A DNA stretch of 35,022 nucleotides from a virus, in the IMG/VR virus record IMGVR_UViG_3300033463_000535. One strand, given 5' to 3'. The notes below the pieces were generated by a model. That model searched no databases. It was given only the letters and a program-made list of their open reading frames with translations, and was not told the origin of the DNA. How positions within the stretch are numbered: position 1 is the first letter of the stretch; each line of letters starts with the position of its first letter. Below, one piece after another: positions 3,294-35,022 of the stretch. The translations under genes were made by a program, and so were the position numbers.

Positions 3294-3764
3294 ATGAATG
3301 GAGTAATACAAGCTATACAAGAAACAGAAAGAGCATTAACTTCTAATACAGCTTCATTGCCATTTGATACAGTTGATTTAAGGACTAGAAGTGCCATGAA
3401 TTGCACAGGATTTATAAACCATAACGAAGGGAGTGCTTTGTTTAGTATATTAGATGGCGGAATATATGAAGTAACATTTAATGCAAATGTAACAAGTGCA
3501 ACTGCTGGAAATGTAGCATTAGCCTTATTTGCAGATGGAACACAAATAGCAGGAACAGAAATGGATGCAACAATAGCAACAGCAGGAGACTGGGAAAATA
3601 TAAGTTTTGATAAAAAGATAAGAGTATGTTGCAAAGGTACTGTAAATTTAGCAATTACATCATTGCCAACAACAACATTTAGTGGAACAGGCACACCAGT
3701 AATAACAGATACAGAAATTCCAATTATAAAAAATGCAAACATAAATATTGAAAGGCTTGCGTAA
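3294..3764 (+). CDS. All-beta protein resembling the BclA C-terminal / C1q-TNF jelly-roll domain (no collagen stalk)
   Basis: AAGGAGG SD upstream. GGIYEVTFNANVTSATAGNVALALFADGTQIAGTEMDATIATAGDWENISFDKKIRVCCKGTVNLAITS has the alternating beta pattern of BclA-CTD-type domains. Confidence 0.4.
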   Translation: MNGVIQAIQETERALTSNTASLPFDTVDLRTRSAMNCTGFINHNEGSALFSILDGGIYEVTFNANVTSATAGNVALALFADGTQIAGTEMDATIATAGDWENISFDKKIRVCCKGTVNLAITSLPTTTFSGTGTPVITDTEIPIIKNANINIERLA

Positions 3765-11998: not shown

Positions 11999-12286
11999 AT
12001 GAAAGTAATGATAAGTCAACCAATGAGAGGTAAAACAGAAAAGCAAATTAAAGAAGAAAGGAAACAGTTAATAAGTGAGTTAGAAGCAGAAGGACATGAG
12101 GTATTGGAAACAGTGTTTGATGATTTTGACTGTTATGCAAGTCCAATAGCATATTTAGCAAGAAGCATAGAATTTTTAGATAAAGCAGATGCAGTTGTAT
12201 TTATGGAAGGTTGGGAAAACGCAAGAGGGTGCAGAGTAGAACATGAAGTAGCGAGAGAATATGGTAAGTATATAAAATATTGTTAA
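11999..12286 (+). CDS. DUF4406-like protein (nucleoside 2-deoxyribosyltransferase-like fold)
   Basis: MISQPMRGKT.. and ADAVVFMEGWENARGCRVEHEVA match the DUF4406 pattern. Confidence 0.65.
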   Translation: MKVMISQPMRGKTEKQIKEERKQLISELEAEGHEVLETVFDDFDCYASPIAYLARSIEFLDKADAVVFMEGWENARGCRVEHEVAREYGKYIKYC

Positions 12287-12300
12287 GATAAGGAGTAAAT

Positions 12301-12447
12301 ATGGAATGTCAAATATGTGCTAAACAATATCTCTGTACTAAAAAACAATGTACAGGACTAATAAGATGGAGAGAAACAGCTAATTATGGAGAAGTAAGGA
12401 GAATAGAAGATGACAAACAACAGACAAGCAAAGGAAGAATTAATTAG
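12301..12447 (+). CDS. Cys-rich micro-protein (48 aa); overlaps the next gene by 38 nt
   Basis: AAGGAG SD upstream. MECQICAKQYLCTKKQCTGLIRW.. The long overlap lowers confidence. Confidence 0.3.
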   Translation: MECQICAKQYLCTKKQCTGLIRWRETANYGEVRRIEDDKQQTSKGRIN

Positions 12448-12820
12448 AAGATATGGAGCAGAATGTTTTATAGAACGATTAAAACTACGAGATACAAAGG
12501 GAATAACTTATAAAGGTAAAGGTCAATATAAGAAGATGAAGATGCTTACATATCATCATATTAAGCCAAAATCAAAAGGAGGACAGGCAACAGTAGATAA
12601 TGGAGCAATATTAAGTAGCGAAAACCACGCATGGTTCCATCATCAGCCAAAAAGAGAACAAGAAAGAATGAATAAAATGTTCCAACAATTGAAAGAAGAT
12701 ATAGATGAGTTAAGGATAATATATGTAGATGACTTAGATGTAGATTTTAAGGTCGTTGCAACAATATTACAGCTTGATGAAAGAGGCAGGATAATAGAAG
12801 AACAAGAAAAAGAAAGATAA
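12410..12820 (+). CDS. HNH endonuclease (second copy, different lineage)
   Basis: LTYHHIKPKSKGGQATVDNGAILSSENHAWFH is an HNH core. AAGGAG SD 8 nt upstream. Confidence 0.8.
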   Translation: MTNNRQAKEELIRRYGAECFIERLKLRDTKGITYKGKGQYKKMKMLTYHHIKPKSKGGQATVDNGAILSSENHAWFHHQPKREQERMNKMFQQLKEDIDELRIIYVDDLDVDFKVVATILQLDERGRIIEEQEKER

Positions 12821-12821
12821 A

Positions 12822-12850
12822 TTGATAAAAAATAAAATTAATGATATTAT
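12822..12850 (+). promoter_or_regulatory. Promoter with extended -10
   Basis: TTGATA (12822-12827), 17 nt, TGaTATTAT (12842-12850). Confidence 0.55.
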
Positions 12851-12856
12851 ATTAAT

Positions 12857-12940
12857 TGTATATCAGCAGACATAGTGGTCACCCCACAATAATAAGATTG
12901 AATTGAGGTTCTAATTTAGGGCTTCAATTTTTTTATTTTA
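12857..12940 (+). ncRNA. Candidate ~80-nt small RNA (promoter-to-terminator unit with no ORF)
   Basis: Bounded by the 12822 promoter and the 12901 terminator. Contains a locally GC-rich core, cagcagacatagtGGTCACCccac. No SD/ATG. Confidence 0.35.
12901..12940 (+). terminator. Rho-independent terminator
   Basis: AATTGAGG (12901-12908) / CTTCAATT (12922-12929): 8 bp with one G-U pair, 13-nt loop, then TTTTTTTATTTT. Confidence 0.55.
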
Positions 12941-12945
12941 AGTTG

Positions 12946-12974
12946 TTGCACAAATTAAAAAGTTATGATAGAAT
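12946..12974 (+). promoter_or_regulatory. Promoter with extended -10 (middle/late operon)
   Basis: TTGCAC (12946-12951), 17 nt, TGaTAGAAT (12966-12974). Confidence 0.6.
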
Positions 12975-12997
12975 AATAAAAAAAGAGAGAAAAGTGT

Positions 12998-13381
12998 ATG
13001 TATATTGATTATGATTTTCCTAATTGGAATAAATATATAAACGCAGAAAGAACAAATAAATACATAGCCAATAAAATAAAAAAAGAAGAAAAGCAAATAG
13101 TTGCGTATTTGTGTAGAAGAATGAAACCTGTTGAAAAATATCCTGTAATAATTAAAATAAAAAAGTATGTAAAAACAAAAAACACAGATGTTGATAATAT
13201 AAGAATTAAAGGATTGCTAGATGGTTTAGTAGATATAGGAATACTAAAAAATGATAACTTAAATTATATAAAAAGGATCATATTAGAAGCAGAAATAAGT
13301 AAAGAAAAAGACGGAATAGATATAGAAATAATAGAAGGAGCGGAAATTGAAAATACCAAAAATATTAACAAAAGAAAATAA
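12998..13381 (+). CDS. rusA: RusA-like Holliday-junction resolvase
   Basis: NWNKYINAERTNKYIANKIKKEE.. and DVDNIRIKGLLDGLVDIGILKNDN resemble the Firmicutes-phage RusA family. Confidence 0.55.
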   Translation: MYIDYDFPNWNKYINAERTNKYIANKIKKEEKQIVAYLCRRMKPVEKYPVIIKIKKYVKTKNTDVDNIRIKGLLDGLVDIGILKNDNLNYIKRIILEAEISKEKDGIDIEIIEGAEIENTKNINKRK

Positions 13382-13532
13382 AAAATATTATTTTATAAAA
13401 TTATTCAAAAATTACGCAATGTATAAAACAGAAAAAGGGATTGTAGAATGTTTTAATTTTCACGATTTAGGTTTAATTAAAGAAGTGAAAAGAGATAGAG
13501 AAGCGAAAAATGGCGGATGGATTAAGGCATAA
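13347..13532 (+). CDS. Hypothetical protein (TTG start)
   Basis: AGGAG SD 6 nt before the TTG; 61 aa; overlaps the rusA-like gene by 35 nt. Confidence 0.4.
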   Translation: MKIPKILTKENKKYYFIKLFKNYAMYKTEKGIVECFNFHDLGLIKEVKRDREAKNGGWIKA

Positions 13533-13559
13533 AAAATATTATAACAGGAGTAAATGCCT

Positions 13560-13850
13560 ATGATATACGATAAAGATAAAGTAAAAAAGATAGTAGAATT
13601 TAAGGATACAATTGAAAATATAAGATATAAAAAATACATAGAATGGTTATTAAGTTTTTACAATGAATATTATTTACATTCAAGGGAATTTGATGAGCAA
13701 AGAAAAAAATATAAAGATATAACAATTAAATATTATGATGCAGAAGAAGATAAATACAATTTGATGGAAAAATACAATGCATTAAACAGAAAATATAATA
13801 CCATAACAAGAAAAATAAAGGAAAAAAATATTAAGTTGTTCGATGATTAG
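13560..13850 (+). CDS. Hypothetical Lys/Tyr-rich protein
   Basis: AGGAG (13546-13550) is 9 nt from the ATG at 13560 and only 3 nt from the ATG at 13554. Confidence 0.55.
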   Translation: MIYDKDKVKKIVEFKDTIENIRYKKYIEWLLSFYNEYYLHSREFDEQRKKYKDITIKYYDAEEDKYNLMEKYNALNRKYNTITRKIKEKNIKLFDD

Positions 13851-13861
13851 AAAGGAATAAA

Positions 13862-14905
13862 ATGAAAGTAGCCATAGACAAGAATTGTATAAAAAAAATA
13901 AAAGACTTTAAAGAATTTGAATATATATATATCTATGATGATGAAACCATACAAGAATTATTTAAAACAAATTTACATTGTATAAATAAAAGGGCAGCAA
14001 AAGATATTGATGTTGATATAAATTTGACAAATTATGAAATTAGTAGTATAAAAAAAGCAGATATAAATGATGAGAATTGGAAACAGCTGCCAAAAACAAA
14101 AGAAAATACATTTGTTATAATAGTACCGAATTATAATAATGATCATGGAGATTACAACGGAAAAACATTTTTAAGAAATTGTTTAGATAGCATATTAAAT
14201 CAAACATATAGGAATTTTTATTTAATATTTGTAGATGATTTAAGCACAGACACATCTGTAGAAACGATTAAAAGTTACAAAGATGAAAGAATACACTTAA
14301 TAAAAAATAAAAGGAAAAGATATAATGGAGGAAGTAGAAATGTCGGAATTGAGTATGCAATAGACAACTTGGATTTTGATTATTTCTGCTTTTTAGATAG
14401 TGATGATTGGTGGAAAGATAACACAATATTAGATTTTATAAATAAAAGAATATATAACAATGAAATGATGACATTGGGTTGTGAAGGAATAGGAGTACCA
14501 TATAGGCATTACAACGATGTTGAATGTTACGAAGATTTATATGCATTAAATAACAAGTTATGGTGTACAGCATGGAGTAAGGTAATAAGGAAAGATAAAA
14601 TAGTTTACTTTGAAGAAAGTACCTTGATGGAGGATAGAGTATGGACATATAAATTAGCGGACAATCTTGATTTTGATAAAGTAGTAAATTCAAACAAATT
14701 ATGTTATTGTTGGAACAGAACTAACATAGATAATAGTGTAAGCCTTGTGAGAAGTGAATTTTGGGATGCTTGTGCTTGGTGTCATATAGGACATCAATTG
14801 CAGCTAATAACACAAATGAAGCACAAGGAAATGATACCAAAAATACAAGAAAGAATAAATCAATGTATAGATAAGATAAATAGAGGAATATACCAACAAT
14901 ATTAA
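13862..14905 (+). CDS. Family-2 glycosyltransferase (GT-A) with an ~85-aa N-terminal extension
   Basis: FVIIVPNYNN..LRNCLDSILNQTYRNFYLIFVDDLSTDTS..GGSRNVGIEYA..FCFLDSDDWW has the GT2 motifs, including DxD. Confidence 0.85.
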   Translation: MKVAIDKNCIKKIKDFKEFEYIYIYDDETIQELFKTNLHCINKRAAKDIDVDINLTNYEISSIKKADINDENWKQLPKTKENTFVIIVPNYNNDHGDYNGKTFLRNCLDSILNQTYRNFYLIFVDDLSTDTSVETIKSYKDERIHLIKNKRKRYNGGSRNVGIEYAIDNLDFDYFCFLDSDDWWKDNTILDFINKRIYNNEMMTLGCEGIGVPYRHYNDVECYEDLYALNNKLWCTAWSKVIRKDKIVYFEESTLMEDRVWTYKLADNLDFDKVVNSNKLCYCWNRTNIDNSVSLVRSEFWDACAWCHIGHQLQLITQMKHKEMIPKIQERINQCIDKINRGIYQQY

Positions 14906-14914
14906 GGAGTAAGT

Positions 14915-15616
14915 ATGAAATATATAGTAATGTGTGGCGGAAGGTATCCAGAATTTAGCGAGCCAAAACAATTGATAAAAGTAAATGGTGAAGTATTAGT
15001 AGAACGCACAGTAAGATTATTAAAAGAAAACGGAATAGATGATATAGCAATATGTACTAATTGCAATAAGTTTGATTACATAGGAGTTCCAATATTGATG
15101 CAAGACAACGATTATATAGCAGATAGCGAACAAGAAAAAATAAACTCAAAAGCCTGTTGGCTAAATGCTTATTATCCGATGGAAGAGCCTTGTTGTTATT
15201 TACATGGAGACGTATATTTTTCACCAGAAGCAATTAAAACGATTATAGACACAGAAGTTAAAGATACAATGTTCTTTTGTACATTCGATTGGACAGATGG
15301 AGTTAAAGACAGAAGGAATTACAAAGGACGTGAGCCATTTGCATATAAAGTAGTAAATCAAAAGTTATTTAGACAAGGCATAAATGATTTAATGAAAATG
15401 GTAGATGAGGGAAAATTTAAAAATGGACTGCCACCTATATGTTGGCAGTTATACAGATACTTAAATGGATTAGAGATAGATTATAACACAAAAGATTGGA
15501 CACAAATTAACAATATATTTCAAACTAAAGGAGATTATGTAGTTATTAATGATTACACAACAGATGTAGATCACCCAGAAGATGCAAAAATTATGGAGGA
15601 ATGGTTAAAGAAATGA
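14915..15616 (+). CDS. Sugar-phosphate nucleotidyltransferase-like protein
   Basis: MKYIVMCGGRYPEFSEPKQLIKVNGEVLVERTVRLLKENGIDDIAI matches the N-terminal GxG..PK(Q)L..v.G signature of NTP_transferase folds. Confidence 0.6.
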   Translation: MKYIVMCGGRYPEFSEPKQLIKVNGEVLVERTVRLLKENGIDDIAICTNCNKFDYIGVPILMQDNDYIADSEQEKINSKACWLNAYYPMEEPCCYLHGDVYFSPEAIKTIIDTEVKDTMFFCTFDWTDGVKDRRNYKGREPFAYKVVNQKLFRQGINDLMKMVDEGKFKNGLPPICWQLYRYLNGLEIDYNTKDWTQINNIFQTKGDYVVINDYTTDVDHPEDAKIMEEWLKK

Positions 15617-16656
15617 TAATAGCAATGTGTGCAACAAGGAACTGGTATTTTTATACCGCAGTCGCCTTATATTCGATTTTAAGCCATAATAAAGTACAAA
15701 AGGTCTATTTATTTATTGAAGATGACAAAATCCCTTATATTCAAGATAAACGTGTTAAATTTATAAACATAAACAAAATTCCAAAGTATGTTAAAGAAAC
15801 AAGTCTTAATTACAATACACATTATACAAGAATGAGTTATACAAGATGTTTTTTTAGTAAGGTATTGAAAGAAGACAAAATAATATATCTTGATGTAGAT
15901 GCATTAGTAGTAGATAATATACAAGATTTATGGAACATGGATTTAGAAGGAAATTACATTGCAGGAGCACATGAAGGTGGAGAATGGGATAAACACTTGC
16001 AATTACAAGGATTTGATGATACATACATAAATAGCGGAGTGTTGGTAATTGATTTAAAAAAAACAAGAAAACACAAATTAGATGACAAAATGATAGAACT
16101 GTTAAATACAAAAAAATATTTATTTCCAGACCAAGATGTAATAAACATAGTATATAAGGGAAAAATAAAACATATTAGCAATATATATAATTCTGCAGAA
16201 ACAACAGGAATAGTAGATAATGCAAAAATAATACATTACATAAAAGAACACAAAGGGTGGATAAAAGAAAGTCCACGAAGTGAAATATGGTTACATAATT
16301 ATAAATTATACATAAAAAATTTATTTAAAGGAGGAAAAAAGATGTTTAGAGGAACAGTAGTAAAAAGGTTTACATTAGGAAGCAACCCTGAATACAAATT
16401 TGAAGATTTGAAAATTATTTCAAGAAAAGACAGAAATGTAGAAGGGGAACTATTTGTAGGAGATGTAATAGAAGGTAGCAACAAAATGTGTGAATATTTA
16501 CAAGGTGGAAATCCTACAAAAGAAGCATATTTAGATGATGAAACATTAGAGACTTTTCCTGATGAAAAGGAAATTGAAAAAGAAGAAAAGACTAAAAAGA
16601 TAGAAAAGAAAGTAACAAAAAAGACAACAACTAGAAGAAAAACAACAAAAAAATAA
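15601..16656 (+). CDS. Family-8 glycosyltransferase fused in frame to a ~105-aa small phage protein module (internal SD plus ATG at 16342)
   Basis: IIYLDVDALVVDNIQDLWNMDL..YINSGVLVIDLKK..LFPDQDVINIV are GT8 motifs. The start may be 15613 (ATGA overlap). The tail module reads MFRGTVVKRFTLGSNPEYKFEDLK..GELFVGDVIEGSNKMCEYLQGGNP plus a K/T-rich end. Confidence 0.8.
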   Translation: MVKEMIIAMCATRNWYFYTAVALYSILSHNKVQKVYLFIEDDKIPYIQDKRVKFININKIPKYVKETSLNYNTHYTRMSYTRCFFSKVLKEDKIIYLDVDALVVDNIQDLWNMDLEGNYIAGAHEGGEWDKHLQLQGFDDTYINSGVLVIDLKKTRKHKLDDKMIELLNTKKYLFPDQDVINIVYKGKIKHISNIYNSAETTGIVDNAKIIHYIKEHKGWIKESPRSEIWLHNYKLYIKNLFKGGKKMFRGTVVKRFTLGSNPEYKFEDLKIISRKDRNVEGELFVGDVIEGSNKMCEYLQGGNPTKEAYLDDETLETFPDEKEIEKEEKTKKIEKKVTKKTTTRRKTTKK

Positions 16657-16665
16657 GAGGTAAAA

Positions 16666-17199
16666 ATGGATAAATTAAAAATAGAGTATGTAGATATTAA
16701 TAGTATAAAACCATATAAAAATAATGCAAAATTACACCCTGAAGAACAAATAGAACAAATTAAAAATAGTATAGAGCAATTTGGCATGGATGATCCTATA
16801 GGGATTTGGAAAGATGAAATAGTAGAAGGACATGGAAGATTGATAGCTTGTAAAGAATTAGGCTATACAGAAGTGCCAATAATAAGACTTGACCACTTAT
16901 CAGACGAAGAAAGAAAAGCATATACATTAGCACACAATAAACTAACAATGAACTCAGATTTTGATATAGATATATTAAATAGTGAACTGGATGAAATATT
17001 AGATATAGACATGTCAGACTTTGGTTTTGAAAATATAGATATAGATTGGGATACAGTAGAAGATTTAACTACTACAAATTATGACAAACCTGAACATAAT
17101 ATGTTAGAATGTCCACAATGTCATCATATAGACAGAGATATACATTTTAAAAAAGTAAAAGATGTTGATATCGACGAAGAAGAATTGAGTGATGAGTAA
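16666..17199 (+). CDS. ParB N-terminal (ParB/Srx) domain protein, possible DpdB-like partner
   Basis: INSIKPYKNNAKLHPEEQIEQIKNSIEQFGMDDPIGIW..IVEGHGRLIACKELGYTEVPIIRLDHLSDEERKAYTLAHNK. The C-terminus has CPQCHH. Confidence 0.8.
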   Translation: MDKLKIEYVDINSIKPYKNNAKLHPEEQIEQIKNSIEQFGMDDPIGIWKDEIVEGHGRLIACKELGYTEVPIIRLDHLSDEERKAYTLAHNKLTMNSDFDIDILNSELDEILDIDMSDFGFENIDIDWDTVEDLTTTNYDKPEHNMLECPQCHHIDRDIHFKKVKDVDIDEEELSDE

Positions 17200-17969
17200 T
17201 GAAAGTGTTTTTAAGTGCATTAGAAAATGCTCAAGCAAGTGGAAAAAATGCTAAATCAGTTGCTCAATTATTAATAGAAAAAAATATAAAAATGAATTTT
17301 AATTTAATGAGTTTTTATTATATTAAAGGAAAAATAGATTTAGCAAGAATGATAAGAGATAACAGTAAAGAAATATTAATAGATAGTGGAGCACATTCTT
17401 TTCAAAAAGGTAAGAAAGTAGATTGGGACAAATATACAGAACAATATGCAGAATTCATAAAAAAATTTGATAAACCTAATGTAATAGGATATTTTGAAAT
17501 GGATGTCGACAACATAATTGGTTATGAGAAAGTACGAGAATTAAGAGAGAAGCTAGAAAAAGTATCAGACAAGATAATACCAGTGTGGCATAAAAATAGA
17601 GGCATAGAAGAATATAAAAAAATGTGTAAAGATTATGAAAGGAAAATAATAGCAATAACAGGATTTAAAAATGAAGATATAAAAGATGAACAATATTTAA
17701 TGTTTTTAAAGTATGCAAAAAAATATAGATGTAAGGTACATTGTTTAGGAATGACAAGAAGAAAAGTTTTAGACAAAGTACCTTTTGATTATGTTGATAG
17801 TAGTTCTTGGGTTCAATCAACCGTATATGGAAGAATAGATGGAAAAGGTAAAGTAACAAAGGAAATGAGTAGAAATAATAGAGAGGTGGTGTTTATAGAA
17901 AATTATAAAACAGGTATGAAAATACAAGAACACTATTATAAAAAATGGAAAAAAATATGTAATGATTAA
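17199..17969 (+). CDS. dpdA: DpdA-like DNA (7-deazaguanine) transglycosylase, TGT-fold
   Basis: LIDSGAHSFQ (cf. TGT DSGGFQ), IAITGF, VHCLGMT (cf. LMGVG) and PFDYVDSSSW (cf. DMFDCV) appear in TGT order. The neighbours are a preQ1-type riboswitch and YhhQ. Confidence 0.6.
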   Translation: MKVFLSALENAQASGKNAKSVAQLLIEKNIKMNFNLMSFYYIKGKIDLARMIRDNSKEILIDSGAHSFQKGKKVDWDKYTEQYAEFIKKFDKPNVIGYFEMDVDNIIGYEKVRELREKLEKVSDKIIPVWHKNRGIEEYKKMCKDYERKIIAITGFKNEDIKDEQYLMFLKYAKKYRCKVHCLGMTRRKVLDKVPFDYVDSSSWVQSTVYGRIDGKGKVTKEMSRNNREVVFIENYKTGMKIQEHYYKKWKKICND

Positions 17970-17970
17970 A

Positions 17971-18014
17971 ATAGTAGTAGTTAGCCAAAACCTACTATAA
18001 AAAAATTAAGGAGG
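17971..18014 (+). promoter_or_regulatory. preQ1-I-like riboswitch overlapping the yhhQ SD
   Basis: P1 ATAGTAG (17971-17977) / CTACTAT (17992-17998), loop tagttagccaaaac, A-rich tail AAAAAAATTAAGGAGG. Compare the B. subtilis queC aptamer AGAGGUUCUAGCUACACCCUCUAUAAAAAACUAAGG. Confidence 0.6.
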
Positions 18015-18022
18015 AATTTTAA

Positions 18023-18700
18023 ATGAATAATATTTTATTAATAGTATCAATTATAGGGATATTTAGCATAATGCTAATAATTAAAAAGTTTTTAGGTAAA
18101 GAAGGAATAATAGGTTGGATGGGTATAGCAAGTATATTAGCTAATTTATTATTAATTAAAAGTATAGATATATTAGGAATAAGTGCAACATTAGGTAATG
18201 TATTATTTGCAAGTAATTTTTTAGCAACAGATATATTAACAGAAAATTATGGATACAAAGAAGCAAAGAAGGGTGTTAGATTTGGAATATTAGCAGTAAT
18301 AGTATTTATGATAGTAACGCAAGTAGCATTGTTATATATTCCAAATAGTGAAGATATAGCACAAAGTAGTTTTGAAACATTATTTAGTTTTGTACCAAGA
18401 ATATCAATAGCAAGTGTAGCAATGTTTGCTTTATCTAATTTAGTTGATATAAGATTATATGAATGGTTAAGAAAGAAAAGTAACGGAAAGAAAATGTGGT
18501 TAAGAAATAATATCTGTACAATAATATGTAATGGAGGAGAAAATTTTTTATTTTACTTAATAGCATTTTTAGGAGTAATGGATATAGGAACAATATTAAC
18601 AATAGCATTAAGTGCAACAATAATAGAAGTATTAATTGCTTTATGTGACACACCGTTTTTATATATTAGTAAAAAAGTAGAAGATAAAATATATAAGTAA
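18023..18700 (+). CDS. yhhQ: YhhQ/COG1738-family queuosine-precursor (preQ0/preQ1) transporter
   Basis: Multi-TM. FLATDILTENYGYKEAKKGVRFG and LVDIRLYEWLRKK..MWLRNNICT..NFLFYLIAF match the E. coli YhhQ motifs (ATDL..G; D..vF..LR..WWLa..ST..D..FF.IAF). Confidence 0.85.
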   Translation: MNNILLIVSIIGIFSIMLIIKKFLGKEGIIGWMGIASILANLLLIKSIDILGISATLGNVLFASNFLATDILTENYGYKEAKKGVRFGILAVIVFMIVTQVALLYIPNSEDIAQSSFETLFSFVPRISIASVAMFALSNLVDIRLYEWLRKKSNGKKMWLRNNICTIICNGGENFLFYLIAFLGVMDIGTILTIALSATIIEVLIALCDTPFLYISKKVEDKIYK

Positions 18701-18712
18701 AGGAGTGATTAA

Positions 18713-19045
18713 ATGGCAGGTAGACCAAAAAAAGAAATAGATTATATATCAGTTGAAAAGTTAGCTAATATACAATGTACACAAGAAGAAATTGCTAACT
18801 TTTTAGGTTTGTCTGTTAGAACATTACAAAGAGATGAAGAATTTTGTCGCATATATAAAAAAGCTCAAGACAATGGCAAAATGAGTTTAAGAAGAATGCA
18901 ATTTAAATTAGCTGATAAAAATCCTACAATGGCAATATGGTTAGGTAAGCAATACTTAGGTCAGAAAGACAATGTTGAATTAAATGCATCAGTACAAAGA
19001 GTACAAATAATAGATAACACTGATGAGGTTGTTGATGAGAATTGA
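18713..19045 (+). CDS. terS: Terminase small subunit
   Basis: MAGRPKKEIDY..QCTQEEIANFLGLSVRTLQR HTH and NPTMAIWLGKQYLGQKD; immediately upstream of terL. Confidence 0.75.
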   Translation: MAGRPKKEIDYISVEKLANIQCTQEEIANFLGLSVRTLQRDEEFCRIYKKAQDNGKMSLRRMQFKLADKNPTMAIWLGKQYLGQKDNVELNASVQRVQIIDNTDEVVDEN

Positions 19046-20399
19046 AATTAAAGATATAATAGCACCGCATTTTTGGAACACATTTAAATCAAAAAAGACT
19101 AATCAAATATATGAAGGTGGAAGGAATAGCACAAAGACATCAATGATAGCAATAAAGACAGTATTTAATTGTTTAGCAAATGACAATTGTTCTGCGGTAG
19201 CATTAAGAAGTCATAAAACAGAATTAAGGAATAGTGTATTTAAAGAAATAAAAAGGGCTTGTAAAAGATTAGGATTAATAGAAAACATTGACTATAAGGC
19301 CACAGTATCTCCAATGGAAATTAAATTTAATAATGACAATACAATATACTTTGCAGGTGGAGATGATTACGAAGCGGTAAAAGGTATGATTGATGAAAAC
19401 AAGCTAATAAAGATAGTTTGGTTTGAAGAGTTGACAGGATTTAAAGATGAGGATACAATAGACCAGATAAAAGCAACATTTACAAGAGGAAATAATGACT
19501 GGTTTATGGCAATGTATAGTTATAATCCACCTAAGAACAAATATGATTGGGTAAATCAATGGAAACAAAGTAAAATAGGAGATAAGGATTATTTAATATC
19601 ACATACAGATTATAGAAGTGTACCAGAAGAATGGATAGGATTAAAAGCTATTGAAGAAGCTGAAAAGTTAAAGAAGAATGATGAAAAAAGATACAATTGG
19701 ATATGGCTAGGAGAAATAATAGGGCTTGAAGGACTTATATATAATCCTGACTTATTGCAATATGTAGATGAAAAATATTTACAAGACAACAAAGTAAAGA
19801 TATTATATTTAGATTTTTCAATAGATAGTGGCCATCAAACATCTGCAACAGCAGTAAATTGTTATGGATATGGAACAGATGGATATTGGTATTTGTTAGA
19901 TATATATTATTATAGCCCAAATGAAAAGCCAAACAAAAAAGCACCAAGTGAATTAAGTAAAGATATATTTAATTTTGAGTTATTAATGACAAAGAAATGG
20001 AGTGCAGTTACAGATAAAGAAACAATAGATAGTGCAGAAGGAGCATTAAGAAACCAATACTTCAAAGACTATGGTAGAAGATTACATCCTGTTGATAAGG
20101 GAGTAAATAAAGAGCAGTTGATAGAATATAGTCAAGACTTTTTAGCAAATAAGAAATTTAGGATAATAAGAAATAATAATACAAGTATATTTACAAAAGA
20201 ATTTATAAATTACAAGTGGTTACAAGGAAGCATAGAAAAAGGAAAGCCTATACCAGATAAAACAGAACAAGAATTTAAGGCTGAAAAATACTTTAATAGC
20301 TACACAAATGATTATGCTTATACATATTGTGATCATACAATAGATAGTTTTCAATATTGGATTAAAGATAATTTACAAAAATTAGGTTTAAAACAATAA
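19035..20399 (+). CDS. terL: Terminase large subunit (PBSX/Terminase_3-like)
   Basis: A Walker-A-like YEGGRNSTKTS motif, FEELTGF, and a C-terminal nuclease half. ATG at 19035 follows GAGG; the ORF also opens at 19023. Confidence 0.9.
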   Translation: MRIEIKDIIAPHFWNTFKSKKTNQIYEGGRNSTKTSMIAIKTVFNCLANDNCSAVALRSHKTELRNSVFKEIKRACKRLGLIENIDYKATVSPMEIKFNNDNTIYFAGGDDYEAVKGMIDENKLIKIVWFEELTGFKDEDTIDQIKATFTRGNNDWFMAMYSYNPPKNKYDWVNQWKQSKIGDKDYLISHTDYRSVPEEWIGLKAIEEAEKLKKNDEKRYNWIWLGEIIGLEGLIYNPDLLQYVDEKYLQDNKVKILYLDFSIDSGHQTSATAVNCYGYGTDGYWYLLDIYYYSPNEKPNKKAPSELSKDIFNFELLMTKKWSAVTDKETIDSAEGALRNQYFKDYGRRLHPVDKGVNKEQLIEYSQDFLANKKFRIIRNNNTSIFTKEFINYKWLQGSIEKGKPIPDKTEQEFKAEKYFNSYTNDYAYTYCDHTIDSFQYWIKDNLQKLGLKQ

Positions 20400-23647: not shown

Positions 23648-24508
23648 ATGGCAAATACAGTAACACCAACAAATGGAACACATAAAAGACAAGAAAGATA
23701 TGTAGATACAATAGTAGAATTAATGAGACCAGATTTATTAATAAGAAACACATTTACAACAGATTATGAAGGAAGTCCAAAAGCAGGAGCAGTAAAAGTA
23801 CCTGTAAGAAATACAGATGTACAAGTACAAGATTATGATGTAGTATCAGGAGTGAATTTAACTACATCTGCAACAGATTATTTAGATATACCAGTAAATA
23901 AAAATAAAGCTATCAATGAATTAATTGATGGATATGAAGCAGAAGCAGTACCAGATAATTTAATTGCACAAAGATTAGAAAGTGGAGCATATTCAATAGC
24001 TACTACATTAGAAGCAGATGCATTAACAACACTAACAACAGAAGGAAATTATACAGCTTCTAAAACACAAGGAACAGATAGTACAGCACAAACAATTTAT
24101 GCTGATATTCTAAAAGATATTGCACAACTTAAGAAATTAGGTGTAAAAGCTAATAGAATTAAAGTAGCAATTGATAGTGAAACAGAAGTATTATTGTTAA
24201 CAGATGAAAAATTCTCTAATACAGCATCTCAAATAGGTGCAGAACTTGCTAGACAAGGTGTAGTAGGAAGAATAAACGGTGTAGATGTAATGACAGAAGA
24301 CTTATCAAGCAAAGGAGCACAGTATATTGTATATGCACCAGATTGGTGTAAAGCAATAGATGAATTTACAATAGCACCAAGAGTAGTTGATATTAGAGAT
24401 GGAGCACACGTAGGAGCTTCAAAACTTGAAGGAAGAATGGTATATGCAAATGCAGTAACAAATAAAGCTGCAGTTATTGTAAAATTTGAAGCAAGTGCAA
24501 GTCTATAA
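23648..24508 (+). CDS. Major capsid protein
   Basis: 286 aa, strong AAGGAG SD, after the scaffold gene. The C-terminus ends ..EASASL. Confidence 0.8.
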   Translation: MANTVTPTNGTHKRQERYVDTIVELMRPDLLIRNTFTTDYEGSPKAGAVKVPVRNTDVQVQDYDVVSGVNLTTSATDYLDIPVNKNKAINELIDGYEAEAVPDNLIAQRLESGAYSIATTLEADALTTLTTEGNYTASKTQGTDSTAQTIYADILKDIAQLKKLGVKANRIKVAIDSETEVLLLTDEKFSNTASQIGAELARQGVVGRINGVDVMTEDLSSKGAQYIVYAPDWCKAIDEFTIAPRVVDIRDGAHVGASKLEGRMVYANAVTNKAAVIVKFEASASL

Positions 24509-25643: not shown

Positions 25644-26087
25644 ATGGCAGAAAAATCAAAGATGCAATTAATAAAAGAATGGATAGAAACTTGTCCATTG
25701 TTAGACGGAGATACAATAAATGTAGATTATTTAAAAGATGAGGTATATTCTTATTCAATAGATAGAACACCAACGCAACCAAAAACAAGAACGTTTATTG
25801 ATGGCGGTGGAAAAAAACAACTAAGTTTTGATTTTACTGTTACTGCTCCTTTGTCAAGTGTTATTGTTGACAACTTAACCAACAGTAAATTTGGAGAAGA
25901 TTTTGTGGATTGGATAGAAACACAAAACGAAAAAAGAAACTTGCCTGAAATTAATGGAGCTTTTAGTATAGAATGTACAAGTCCAAGTTATGTTTTACAG
26001 AAAACCGATACAACAGCAATATATATAATACAAATGAATTTGACATATTATGAATTAATACATAATGAAGAACAACCAAGTTTATAA
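25644..26087 (+). CDS. Tail completion / tail terminator-like protein
   Basis: 147 aa, between the connector genes and the tail tube. Confidence 0.55.
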   Translation: MAEKSKMQLIKEWIETCPLLDGDTINVDYLKDEVYSYSIDRTPTQPKTRTFIDGGGKKQLSFDFTVTAPLSSVIVDNLTNSKFGEDFVDWIETQNEKRNLPEINGAFSIECTSPSYVLQKTDTTAIYIIQMNLTYYELIHNEEQPSL

Positions 26088-26113: not shown

Positions 26114-26596
26114 ATGGCAGATGCATTACAAATATATAACAGAGCAGATATAGTTAACTTTATGAATACAGGAACATCACAAAATCCAACATACACAAGA
26201 ATGCAAGGATTTACAGAGGGCGGAAAATCTATGAACTCAAGCACTTATGACAGAAGATACATAGATGAAAAAACAGAAAGAAGTACAGTAACAGGATATT
26301 CTACTGAAATTGCATACAGCTTTGATAGAATAGTTGGAAATTCAATACATGAAACAATTGCAGGAGTACATGACAATGAATTAGTAGGACAGTCAGTTGA
26401 AATATTAACAGTAAACACAAGAACAAATGAAGCAAAATTAAGAAATTATAGTATAATTCCTGATGCAGATGGAGATAGCACAGATGCTTATACATATAGT
26501 GGAACATTCCACGCAGATGGAGAAATAACAGATGGGACAGCAACAGTTGCTGCAGATGGAATGACTGCTACATTCACACCAACAGCAAGTCTATAA
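26114..26596 (+). CDS. Major tail (tube) protein
   Basis: 160 aa, AAGGAGG SD, followed by a strong terminator and the chaperone genes. The C-terminus ends ..FTPTASL. Confidence 0.75.
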   Translation: MADALQIYNRADIVNFMNTGTSQNPTYTRMQGFTEGGKSMNSSTYDRRYIDEKTERSTVTGYSTEIAYSFDRIVGNSIHETIAGVHDNELVGQSVEILTVNTRTNEAKLRNYSIIPDADGDSTDAYTYSGTFHADGEITDGTATVAADGMTATFTPTASL

Positions 26597-33025: not shown

Positions 33026-33406
33026 ATGGCAATAATAATTAATTATGGATTTGAAAAAGATTTTATTCGTGGTGACACGAAGGTATTAAGTAAATTTAGA
33101 CCAGTTGAAGCTGGCGGCGAGCCTATGGCACTAAAACAAGATGACCAGTTATATTTCACCATGAAAGATAGAAATAAGGTTACAAAAGTAAAGAAAAAAA
33201 TAGGCAATGGTATAACATTAGAAAGCGATGGTTATTATCATATTACACTTGAAACAACAGACACAGAAGACTTGAATGCTGATATATATAAATATGATAT
33301 AGAATTAGACTTAGCAGAAAATCCTTTGTTTGTACAAACATTAATAGAAGGTGAGATAAAACTAAAAGAAGATGTAACAACAAAGGAGGATAAGACAAAT
33401 GGATAA
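33026..33406 (+). CDS. BppU_N-like / Ig-like baseplate-associated protein
   Basis: IRGDTKVL..LYFTMKD..ITLETTDTEDLNADIYKYDIELDL..IEGEIKLKEDVT. Confidence 0.5.
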   Translation: MAIIINYGFEKDFIRGDTKVLSKFRPVEAGGEPMALKQDDQLYFTMKDRNKVTKVKKKIGNGITLESDGYYHITLETTDTEDLNADIYKYDIELDLAENPLFVQTLIEGEIKLKEDVTTKEDKTNG

Positions 33407-34391
33407 TGAATATAGTGTTGATGTTGTAGTAGAAAATGATGAAGAAATAGCGGTTGATGTTAAGGCAGATATAATAAAAACAAAACCTAAACTACAAGAC
33501 AAAGAAGTGACAATTATAACAAATGGAACAAATACTGTAACTTATGATGGCAGTTATGATGGGTTGAGTAATGTTGAAATAACAACAGATGTTCTTGCTC
33601 CTTTGCCTGTATTACAAAATAAATCAGTAACAATAACAGAAAACACAACAACAACAGTAAGTAAAGATAGTGGTTATGACGGATTAAGTAGTGTAGAAGT
33701 AACGACAAATGTACCGAGTACAAGCATACCAGATTGGACACAAATTGGATATAGTAATGTACCTCAAGGTCTTTTAAATGATTTTGCTTATTCAAAAAAT
33801 ATATATGATAATTGGGATGTAAACACAACAAATATGTCAAGCAAATTTTATAATGATACAAATTTAATTTATGTTCCTTTAATTGATACACATAATGTGT
33901 TAGATATAAGGTCTGCTTTTTATGGTTGTATTAATTTAATTTCTGTACCATTATTAAATACTGAAAATGTAGCTAATTTCAATGCGTGTTTTTATAATTG
34001 TGCAAGATTGCCTGCAATTCCATTATTTAACACTAGTAGTGCAACAAATATGCAACAAATGTTTAATGGTTGTGCCAGTTTAACTGTAATTCCATTATTT
34101 AATACTAGTAGTGCAACAAATATGCAACAAATGTTTAATGGTTGTACTAATTTAATAACAATTCCATTATTTAATACTAGTAGTGCAACAAATATGTTTA
34201 ATATGTTCTTAAATTGTTCAAATTTATCAAATGACAGTTTAAATAATATTATGACTATGTGTATTAATTCTGCAATAACATCAAATAAAACATTAAAAAG
34301 GTTAGGTTTATCATCAGCACAAGCTACTACTTGTCAATCATTAAGTAATTGGGAAGATTTTGTAGCTGCAGGATGGAGTACTGGATATTAA
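33399..34391 (+). CDS. BspA/DUF285-type leucine-rich-repeat protein (probable host-adhesion fibre)
   Basis: Two ~38-aa N-terminal repeats (K.VTI..N.T.TV..D.GYDGLS.VE.TT.V), then six 24-aa units of the type PLFNTSSATNMQQMFNGC.NL..I. Confidence 0.8.
   Translation: MDNEYSVDVVVENDEEIAVDVKADIIKTKPKLQDKEVTIITNGTNTVTYDGSYDGLSNVEITTDVLAPLPVLQNKSVTITENTTTTVSKDSGYDGLSSVEVTTNVPSTSIPDWTQIGYSNVPQGLLNDFAYSKNIYDNWDVNTTNMSSKFYNDTNLIYVPLIDTHNVLDIRSAFYGCINLISVPLLNTENVANFNACFYNCARLPAIPLFNTSSATNMQQMFNGCASLTVIPLFNTSSATNMQQMFNGCTNLITIPLFNTSSATNMFNMFLNCSNLSNDSLNNIMTMCINSAITSNKTLKRLGLSSAQATTCQSLSNWEDFVAAGWSTGY
34017..34200 (+). repeat. 72-nt tandem repeat, about 2.5 copies, within the LRR gene
   Basis: Units at 34017-34088 and 34089-34160, plus a partial third from 34161. 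The first 54 nt of units 1 and 2 differ at one base. Confidence 0.9.
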
Positions 34392-34758: not shown

Positions 34759-35022
34759 ATGTGGGAACAAGTTAAACCATTTAGTATTAGAAAAATGGGA
34801 AAAAGAAAAGGATATTGCTTGCAAAATGTTAGACTAGGATTTGGCATACCATCAAAATATGCAAGTGCTAAAGTTGATATGGAAGCTAACAAAAGAGCAG
34901 GAACATTGCACCCTATATCTACTATTCCAACAAATGTATCTGTTCCTGTTTATGTAGATACATCAAGTAAATATGAACATATTATAGTATGTGATCACGG
35001 AACATATTATTCAGATGGGAAG
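34759..35022 (+). CDS. Endolysin, 5' part (continues at 1..418 on the circular map)
   Basis: GAGGAGGG SD upstream. MWEQVKPFSIRKMGKRKGYCLQNVRLGFGIPSKYASAKVDMEANKRAGTLHPIS.. No stop before the window end. Confidence 0.75.
   Translation, partial: MWEQVKPFSIRKMGKRKGYCLQNVRLGFGIPSKYASAKVDMEANKRAGTLHPISTIPTNVSVPVYVDTSSKYEHIIVCDHGTYYSDGK
34896..35022. repeat. Terminal duplication, copy 2 (identical to 1..127)
   Basis: Same 127-nt string as 1..127. The unique genome length is therefore 34,895 bp. Confidence 0.95.

Follow-up and report, generated by a model that had tools for sequence, protein, structure and literature searches.

A putatively mobile sugar-enzyme cassette in uncultured gut and rumen phages and its possible role in tag-directed glycosylation of virion proteins

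A compact set of sugar genes in the virus record IMGVR_UViG_3300033463_000535 (IMG/VR) raises the question of which molecule its products glycosylate. The record, which in its full length of 35,022 nucleotides is referred to here as the window, encodes in succession a family 2 glycosyltransferase (GT2), a nucleotidyltransferase-fold protein (NTase) and a family 8 glycosyltransferase (GT8), followed directly by a ParB/DpdA/YhhQ deazaguanine module. An earlier note, made from the sequence of the window, had left two acceptors for these enzymes, a modified DNA base and the proteins of the virion. The comparison with related phages reported below points to the latter, and we consider it moderately probable that the genes form a mobile cytoplasmic cassette for tag-directed O-glycosylation of virion proteins, borne by phages of gut and rumen Firmicutes. 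Three independent comparisons speak for virion proteins as the acceptor: the conserved position of the cassette in head and packaging operons, the common Ser-Leu tag at the end of capsid, tail-tube and tail-completion proteins, and the association of tag and cassette across unrelated capsid families.

A variable enzyme set with a constant end

The cassette of the window comprises the following features:

13862–14905, + strand: GT2, 347 aa; PF00535 (Glycos_transf_2) at 82.2 bits against a cut-off of 23.3 (5e-23); DSDD, NQTY and VDD motifs
14915–15616, + strand: NTase-fold protein, 233 aa; marginal match to PF12804 (NTP_transf_3, MobA-like) at 31.0 bits against a cut-off of 27.0 (3.5e-7)
15601–16656, + strand: GT8 open reading frame (ORF), 351 aa from the upstream in-frame ATG; PF01501 (Glyco_transf_8) at 109.2 bits against a cut-off of 24.3 (3e-31)
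15613–16341, + strand: catalytic domain of the GT8, retaining, of the GT-A type; DVDALV, NSGV and DQD motifs
16342–16656, + strand: C-dom, an undescribed basic domain of ~100 aa that makes up the final ~105 residues of the GT8 ORF
16326–16344, + strand: internal Shine-Dalgarno sequence and in-frame ATG within the GT8 ORF (AAAGGAGGAAAAAAGATG), read from the sequence

Around 175 related loci were collected via GT8, NTase, the capsid protein, DpdA and C-dom, and annotated against a common reference set; each locus was viewed in a span of +/-10 kb, so that "cassette-free" means that the cassette was not seen within that span. C-dom marks 60 of the loci, and in every one of them it closes a set of sugar enzymes that varies from locus to locus. 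The smallest such set consists of GT2 and C-dom (loci L051, L087, L092, L109 and L176–L178). Larger ones combine GT2 with an NTase fused to C-dom; GT2 and NTase with a GT8 fused to C-dom, as in the window; GT2 and a second GT2 (GT2b) with the GT8 fusion; NTase with a GT4-like enzyme fused to C-dom; or epimerase, x and GT2 with the GT8 fusion. GT2 relatives occur in most cassette loci at 34–68% identity, and the NTase is elsewhere swapped for a 220-aa GT2 or fused to GT2. In this comparison GT2 and C-dom form the minimal core, with NTase and GT8 as optional add-ons. The expectation of at least a disaccharide, voiced in the earlier note, is a fair inference for this phage.

The position of the cassette is as telling as its content. 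In the majority of loci it lies immediately 5' of the scaffold and major capsid genes, in a few just 5' of the terminase, and in HK97-like phages, which have a different terminase, portal, S78 protease and capsid, between the large terminase subunit gene (TerL) and the portal gene, with an NTase ~80% identical to that of the window (L048–L050, L177). Three unrelated capsid types carry it: a 283–286-aa Phage_capsid_4-like type, a 306-aa PF05065 type, and a 391–397-aa HK97-like type with S78 protease. Judged by these gene orders, the cassette is both mobile and modular, sitting within packaging and head operons. A constant C-dom and, as described below, a constant tag combined with hypervariable enzymes (GT2, GT2b, NTase, GT8, GT4-like, epimerase) are what a locus for surface-glycan diversification would be expected to show. 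The phages with the cassette are uncultured and come from ruminant and human gut metagenomes.

The catalytic motifs of the enzymes are intact and the enzymes are soluble, with no hydrophobic segment in GT2, NTase or GT8 and many in YhhQ, which served as the control. The GT2 scores above the curated PF00535 threshold and has the DxD motif of inverting GT-A enzymes, together with a conserved N-terminal extension of ~85 aa and a conserved C-terminus (...GIYQQY). Its sequence matches in the PDB are GalT1/dGT1 of the Fap1 pathway (5hea, 4.3e-11), TarS (5tze, 1.2e-10), TarP (6h1j, 2.4e-7) and TagF (1e-6), and related PHROGs carry the label 'GtrB-like O-antigen conversion'. We propose that it is an initiating protein O-glycosyltransferase. 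The GT8 scores above the PF01501 threshold and has the LgtC-type DxD, N-[AS]-G and xDQD motifs and the distal His; D98, D100, N144, G146, D177, Q178, D179 and H212 are invariant across 25 homologues. Its true start is likely the ATG at 15613 rather than that at 15601, as the former overlaps the NTase stop (ATGA) and all homologues start with MIIAM. Its PDB matches include LgtC (1g9r, 2e-13), 3tzt (a GT8 of Anaerococcus), GlyE of the pneumococcal PsrP pathway (5gvv, 6e-11) and WbbM, and a glycan-extending role is proposed for it.

The NTase was modelled with AlphaFold2 (AF2) from an alignment of 21 homologues (pLDDT 93.6). The top 50 Foldseek matches of the model in the PDB were all nucleotidyltransferases, at probability 1.0 and a TM score of ~0.5, the best being KdsB, LicC, RmlA, MurU, PntC and IspD. 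The modelled fold is clear, and the enzyme presumably makes an activated sugar or alcohol-phosphate donor. In its family G8-G9-x-Y11 is invariant and K18 nearly so, the Arg of the G-x-G-[TS]-R signature is variable, and more than 1100 homologues at 58–96% identity were found in gut and rumen metagenomes. The possibility that this protein is itself a glycosyltransferase, suggested by the 220-aa GT2 that replaces it in some cassettes, was rejected as the first reading, all its top structural matches being nucleotidyltransferases. Pfam scans and motifs thus bear out the earlier reading of the three ORFs as GT2, NTP_transferase-like protein and GT8, if only marginally for the second.

More than 220 GT8 homologues cover 64–99% of the query, and the coverage is partial because the last ~105 residues, C-dom, form a separate module. 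C-dom has a folded part of ~65 aa, then a linker rich in Lys and Glu, and ends in a KK[TS][TS]KK tail; its AF2 model has a pLDDT of ~90 across residues 1–70 and a disordered tail. C-dom occurs free or as a fusion with GT8, NTase or GT4-like GT-B enzymes, every time at the 3' end of the cassette. Nearly all fusions have a Gly-Gly linker and then a Met at the domain boundary, and in L034, L044 and L176–L178 C-dom is a separate ORF. Of the 176 relatives retrieved by a profile search, 120 were listed, the majority of these being free-standing proteins of 77–116 aa. Within the window, the strong Shine-Dalgarno sequence and ATG at 16326–16344 could permit separate translation of the domain. Nothing significant was found for C-dom in Pfam, PHROGs, PDB folds or BFVD folds; a suspected YqbF-like or PDZ-like identity was not recovered in these searches and is not claimed. 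C-dom is probably an adaptor that directs the enzymes to the acceptor, the tag or the assembling particle.

A free C-dom ORF also occurs between the minor head protein and HNH genes of three loci (L080, L083, L084), in whose vicinity no glycosyltransferase is recognisable. Their capsid and tube proteins terminate in ...ENGL and ...DSGL, not in ...SL.

Ser-Leu endings of virion proteins

The clue to the acceptor lies in the C-termini of three virion proteins of the window:

24485–24505, + strand: tag FEASASL of the major capsid protein (gene 23648–24508, ending ...KFEASASL)
26058–26084, + strand: tag IHNEEQPSL of the tail-completion protein (gene 25644–26087)
26576–26593, + strand: tag TPTASL of the putative tail-tube protein (gene 26114–26596, ending ...TFTPTASL)

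Exactly three of the 56 + strand ORFs of at least 75 aa in the window end in Ser-Leu, and they are those of the capsid, tail-completion and tail-tube proteins. Given a background of 0.49% among 2857 other ORFs, the probability of three or more such ends in 56 is 0.003. The tag is an add-on of 6–10 residues, which the corresponding proteins of phages without the cassette lack; these end with the conserved core (...VVVK, ...TYYEL, ...ITYREE, ...TATIVTE). The consensus common to the three proteins is limited to the last three positions, [P/A/V/T/I]-S-[L>Y,V,I]-COOH.

The tag accompanies the cassette across related phages. Ends of the form S[LVYI]-COOH were counted in dereplicated sets and compared by Fisher's test, with statistics that ignore shared ancestry. 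Such ends were found in 18 of 24 window-type capsid homologues with the cassette and in 1 of 14 without it, the latter having at least 8 kb of upstream sequence (p = 1e-4). Among tail-tube homologues, which fall into three families, S[LVI] ends are present in 21 of 24 loci with the cassette as against 7 of 22 others (p = 2e-4), and tail-completion homologues have S[LI] ends in 17 of 27 loci with it and in none of 22 others (p = 1.6e-6). Among all other ORFs, S[LVYI] ends make up ~1.1%.

The same endings also recur on proteins that are not homologous to those of the window. In L048, L049 and L177 the capsid protein ends in ...AGSTPSV and the tube protein in ...FTPSVSV; in L001, L002, L007, L013 and L178 the capsid, tube and tail-completion proteins end in ...KPEGTPSL, ...FSPNASL and ...DYIASL, respectively; and virion proteins of L176 end in ...GTVVSL, ...GGSVSL and ...FTPTTSL. 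Chance and lineage inheritance were both rejected as explanations of the Ser-Leu ends, given this recurrence on non-homologous capsid and tube families and the frequency of ~1% elsewhere. The penultimate Ser is the sole hydroxyl-bearing residue of many tail-completion tags, EEEEILSL and KKEEQISL among them, and it is therefore the predicted site of modification.

Capsid proteins of the HK97 fold and tail-tube proteins expose their C-termini at the surface, and T7 gp10 and lambda gpV serve for C-terminal display. In the mechanism that we favour, the acceptors would be the capsid, tail-tube and tail-completion proteins as the three most exposed repetitive proteins of the virion, each with a terminal [P/A/V/T/I]-Ser-Leu-COOH extension. 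The GT2, with the basic C-dom as an adaptor targeting it to the tag or particle, would attach the first sugar to the tag, the penultimate Ser being the most likely residue. The NTase would provide a dedicated activated donor in this phage, and the retaining GT8 would add one or more residues, giving an O-linked glycan of at least two units. The outcome would be a glycan-coated virion, with a glycan structure that presumably differs between phages as their enzyme content differs. The tag as acceptor, the Ser at position -2 as the site, the order of the enzymes, the role of C-dom and the nature of the sugar are all inferred by comparison of sequences. The solved relatives of the enzymes favour the same reading, as they include the O-glycan enzymes GalT1/dGT1 (5hea) and GlyE (5gvv) of Firmicutes serine-rich adhesins.

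Several observations weigh against it. Approximately a quarter of the cassette loci have capsid ends off the tag (...ENGL, ...LTNV, ...EVTA), and L052 has ...ASV and ...ESV ends and no visible cassette. One contig, represented by L077 and L121 (IMGVR_UViG_3300021399_000369), is tagged (capsid ...TTGSVVSL, tube ...ENTPVSL) and carries ParB-DpdA-YhhQ, with no glycosyltransferase or C-dom in 29.6 of its 31.2 kb; it is possibly a counterexample, or possibly holds the cassette within the remaining 1.6 kb. The cassette of the window is 7 kb from the capsid gene and does not adjoin it, and the statistics of the tag-cassette association take no account of phylogeny. The GT2 resembles TarS and TarP about as well as it does the protein-glycan enzymes, its relatives bear the PHROGs label quoted above, and no cultured phage in INPHARED has the cassette. 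Lastly, the role assigned to C-dom is a guess; DNA, membrane or teichoic acid would be no less suitable as a binding partner of its Lys-rich tail.

A bolder extension of the favoured reading, which we put forward tentatively and regard as possible rather than probable, is that C-dom is a new reader of free C-termini. It would bind [P/A/V/T/I]-Ser-Leu-COOH and recruit adjoining or fused glycosyltransferases, as a portable device horizontally swapped by gut Firmicutes phages to cover capsids and tails with variable glycans. If so, virion glycosylation would be widespread in gut and rumen viromes and no mycobacteriophage curiosity, and the pair of GT2 and C-dom together with a tag of 6–8 residues would be a ready tool for site-specific glycosylation.

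Genome setting and other candidate acceptors

The genome is a complete circle of 34,895 bp, as bases 1–127 are repeated exactly at 34896–35022 (a direct repeat of 127 nt at both ends), and all genes across it have the same orientation. Families of integrase, repressor and excisionase gave no matches among the ORFs scanned with Pfam and PHROGs, which include all those of at least 100 aa; this upholds the absence of a lysogeny module from the earlier note. So does the gene order uphold the location that the note had given to the cassette, between recombination genes and terminase and 5' of the deazaguanine module. On its 5' side are Erf, two HNH endonucleases and RusA, and on its 3' side, after the module, follow the small terminase subunit gene (TerS), TerL, portal, minor head protein, scaffold, capsid and tail genes. 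The module itself consists of:

16666–17199, + strand: ParB-like gene, 3' of GT8
17199–17969, + strand: DpdA (phrog_887, 3.5e-40)
18023–18700, + strand: YhhQ/Vut_1 transporter (Pfam/PHROGs scan)

Intergenic distances range from -4 to +54 nt, and the sole terminator-like hairpin within 12300–19200 lies at 12900–12930, just 5' of RusA. RusA through terminase may therefore be one transcription unit. Of the single operon proposed in the earlier note, the tight co-directional array without a hairpin past 12900–12930 has stood; the operon is plausible, resting on gene spacing and the absence of terminators only, as a promoter scan gave no signal (49 sites against 50.8 expected).

Some further genes of the window may be recorded here. 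At the end of the tail module, a 330-aa protein (33399–34391) has three 72-nt tandem repeats in its gene (33990–34226) and a match to DUF285 (BspA-like leucine-rich repeat; 1e-29), and it may be a receptor-binding protein. An early-region ORF (3294–3764) gave a sub-threshold match to the BclA C-terminal domain (C1q/TNF-like; 2e-6, 28 bits against a cut-off of 38), and the placement of such a collagen-tail-type head domain among early genes is unusual. Just 5' of the HNH and RusA genes, a 95-aa DUF4406 protein (11999–12286) is encoded; the family is nucleoside 2-deoxyribosyltransferase-like, and the protein could be linked to nucleotide or base salvage.

The probable hosts are Clostridia/Firmicutes of low GC content from gut and rumen, an assignment at the level of metagenome-assembled genomes (MAGs) only. 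GTDB genomes yielded only MAG contigs with the look of binned phage contigs. L112 and L113 (JAFRFD010000049.1, JAFRFO010000097.1), both phage-like, 40,887 bp long and alike in gene order around the cassette, represent one identical contig that was assigned to a MAG of Methanobrevibacter as well as to one of Clostridia. Their placement is probably mis-binning, and MAG-based host calls are for this reason unreliable for this phage group.

The acceptor could also be sought in the cell envelope. Soluble GT2, GT8 and NTase would then modify a wall-polymer precursor on the cytoplasmic face (teichoic acid, cell-wall polysaccharide or S-layer glycan), which might prevent superinfection or keep progeny from adsorbing again to debris, and the polybasic tail of C-dom would keep the enzymes at the anionic membrane. 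This fits the matches of the GT2 to TarS (1e-10), TarP (2e-7) and TagF (1e-6) and to PHROGs named after O-antigen conversion, the resemblance of the NTase fold to LicC, to IspD/TarI-like enzymes and to KdsB, which feed envelope polymers, and the name of one JGI homologue of the GT8, 'lipopolysaccharide biosynthesis glycosyltransferase'. A common host acceptor would also suit a cassette that moves among phages with unrelated virions. However, neither lysogeny genes nor a membrane segment, flippase or polyprenyl-phosphate transferase accompany the enzymes, the coding of the genome is confined to one strand and the cassette stands in a late-operon context. Moreover, an envelope acceptor leaves unexplained why three virion proteins share a tag that tracks the presence of the cassette, and why the cassette adjoins the capsid gene in most lineages. 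We therefore regard remodelling of the host envelope as unlikely, though it is the best of the alternatives, and the earlier rejection of a TarP-like prophage scenario as reasonable in view of the missing lysogeny genes and membrane segments.

Somewhat less likely still is an acceptor within the cassette itself or in the host proteome. Here the sugars would be attached to the Ser/Thr-rich basic tail of C-dom or to a host protein, and the xSL-COOH tag would have another use, for instance as a signal for assembly, a chaperone or a protease that C-dom reads. The tails are indeed rich in Ser and Thr between the lysines (KKTTTRRKTTKK in the window), free small C-dom proteins are abundant, and L080, L083 and L084 carry C-dom without a recognisable glycosyltransferase. 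Yet one Ser or Thr is all that many C-dom tails contain, and their lengths differ widely; an acceptor fused to its own enzymes would be unusual, and the tag co-varies with the presence of glycosyltransferases together with C-dom.

The neighbouring deazaguanine module, which the earlier note had linked functionally to the sugar genes, proved to be a poor guide to the acceptor. In at least 40 of the 55 loci with DpdA, ParB-DpdA-YhhQ (16666–18700 in the window) forms a trio, as a rule immediately 5' of TerS and with no adjoining glycosyltransferase. Any cassette gene is found within 10 kb in 7 of the 55; conversely, DpdA lies within 10 kb in 5 of the 60 C-dom loci and adjoins the cassette in two, the window and L131. 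A survey of this kind had been suggested in the earlier note, and consistent co-occurrence of sugar genes with dpdA is not what it found. The closest relative, L051, whose capsid protein is 90% identical, has GT2, C-dom and ParB at the same place, and DpdA, YhhQ, NTase and GT8 were not found in it. Because cassette and DpdA rarely co-occur and the trio recurs without glycosyltransferases, their adjacency is best read as that of two modules sharing a moron-rich slot 5' of the terminase, and on gene content they appear to be independent accessory modules in a common insertion zone. In L048 (548–1585) and L177 (550–2189) a PAPS-reductase-like gene occupies the pre-terminase slot, with or without ParB; different DNA-modification modules appear to take one another's place there. 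The window showed no genes for preQ0 biosynthesis, an indication that a precursor is salvaged through YhhQ.

The same counts bear on DNA as the acceptor, the option in which the transferases would sugar a modified base, for example 7-deazaguanine installed by DpdA, with the Lys-rich tail of C-dom as a tether to DNA. The known 7-deazaguanine DNA bases reportedly have no hydroxyl, which counts against it. Although the cassette adjoins the trio in the window and L131, the H1-like KKTTKK tail could bind DNA and virus-encoded DNA-hypermodifying glycosyltransferases are on record (Pyle et al.), this option is very improbable, with DpdA so rarely near the cassette, L051 lacking DpdA and YhhQ, the trio mostly standing alone, the cassette among late head genes and not replication genes, and no dCMP/dUMP hydroxymethylase, TET/5mYOX or methyltransferase in the ORFs scanned with Pfam and PHROGs (all those of at least 100 aa included). 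Glycosyltransferases adjoining dpdA should consequently not be taken as evidence of glycosylated deazaguanine DNA, a tempting annotation error.

Comparison with known glycosylation systems

Glycosylation of virion proteins, the second option of the earlier note, has thus gained comparative support from position, tag and association, all of it drawn from sequence comparison. If true, a large group of uncultured gut and rumen phages coats its particles with variable glycans. The consequences would extend to phage-mucus and phage-immune interactions, to receptor masking and virome proteomics, and to therapeutic phage design. A full-text search of the literature found no report of virion glycosylation outside actinobacteriophages, and there is reportedly little evidence for it elsewhere. 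A glycostain survey of ten phages was negative (PMC12894461).

The known systems with phage-encoded glycosyltransferases include those that glycosylate DNA. The glucosyltransferases of T4 have the GT-B fold. The enzymes of these systems (the T4 alpha- and beta-glucosyltransferases, and the 5-hydroxymethylcytosine (5hmC) arabinosyl and other transferases of Pyle et al. 2024) resemble the cassette in being phage-encoded, and the cassette adjoins a DNA-modification module here. In contrast to it, however, they need a 5-hydroxymethyl-pyrimidine pathway, of which none was found in the ORFs scanned, and the cassette does not travel with DpdA.

The catalytic domain of the GT2 matches the wall teichoic acid N-acetylglucosamine transferases TarS and TarP over ~200 residues (1e-10 and 2e-7, respectively), no better than it matches GalT1 (4.3e-11), and TarP is also phage-borne, on a prophage. 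Unlike for TarP, there is no lysogeny module and hence no sign of temperate carriage, and unlike both enzymes the GT2 has its N-terminal extension, the ...GIYQQY C-terminus, a C-dom partner, a place in late structural operons and tags on the virion proteins.

The predicted chemistry is akin to that of the streptococcal serine-rich-repeat adhesin pathway (GtfA/B, Gtf3, dGT1/GalT1, GlyD/GlyE), in which Ser residues are O-glycosylated stepwise in the cytoplasm by enzymes that include soluble GT2 and GT8 of the GT-A type. Two members, GalT1 (5hea) and GlyE (5gvv), are among the best solved matches of the GT2 and GT8 of the window. GtfB is a non-catalytic partner of the initiating enzyme, which offers a possible analogy for C-dom. 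The likeness is confined to the catalytic cores (E ~1e-11), though, and the systems differ in that the adhesin acceptor is a long Ser-rich repeat region and here a short C-terminal tag, and in that the adhesin pathway initiates with a GT-B enzyme, GtfA, and is coupled to Sec2 export machinery that is not involved here.

The precedent as regards the acceptor comes from the mycobacteriophages, whose glycans are located at the C-termini of capsid and tail-tube subunits according to the summary in PMC12619734 of Freeman et al. (2023, Cell Host Microbe). Like Che8, Corndog and Myrna, the phages with the cassette encode their own glycosyltransferases, and the C-termini of capsid and tail-tube proteins are involved in both cases, here joined by that of the tail-completion protein; glycosylation is predicted from genes here and was reported there. 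Unlike the mycobacteriophages, with their actinobacterial hosts, the present phages have been assigned at MAG level to low-GC gut and rumen Firmicutes. A nucleotide search of the region in INPHARED found no cultured relative, and in tblastn searches of the same database no cultured phage matched the NTase (E <= 1e-3) and the GT2 gave weak matches only (E <= 1e-10), with actinobacteriophages absent from the results of both. This suggests an independent origin of the two sets of enzymes. Set against the mycobacteriophage systems, the cassette is also highly modular and lies inside head and packaging operons, and it is distinguished by the constant, small, adaptor-like C-dom and the three-residue terminal motif. 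To our knowledge, neither an adaptor of this type nor such a motif has been described for mycobacteriophages. The predicted glycosylation of virion C-termini would probably be the work of a modular and unrelated system that combines a new adaptor protein with a defined tag at the terminus.

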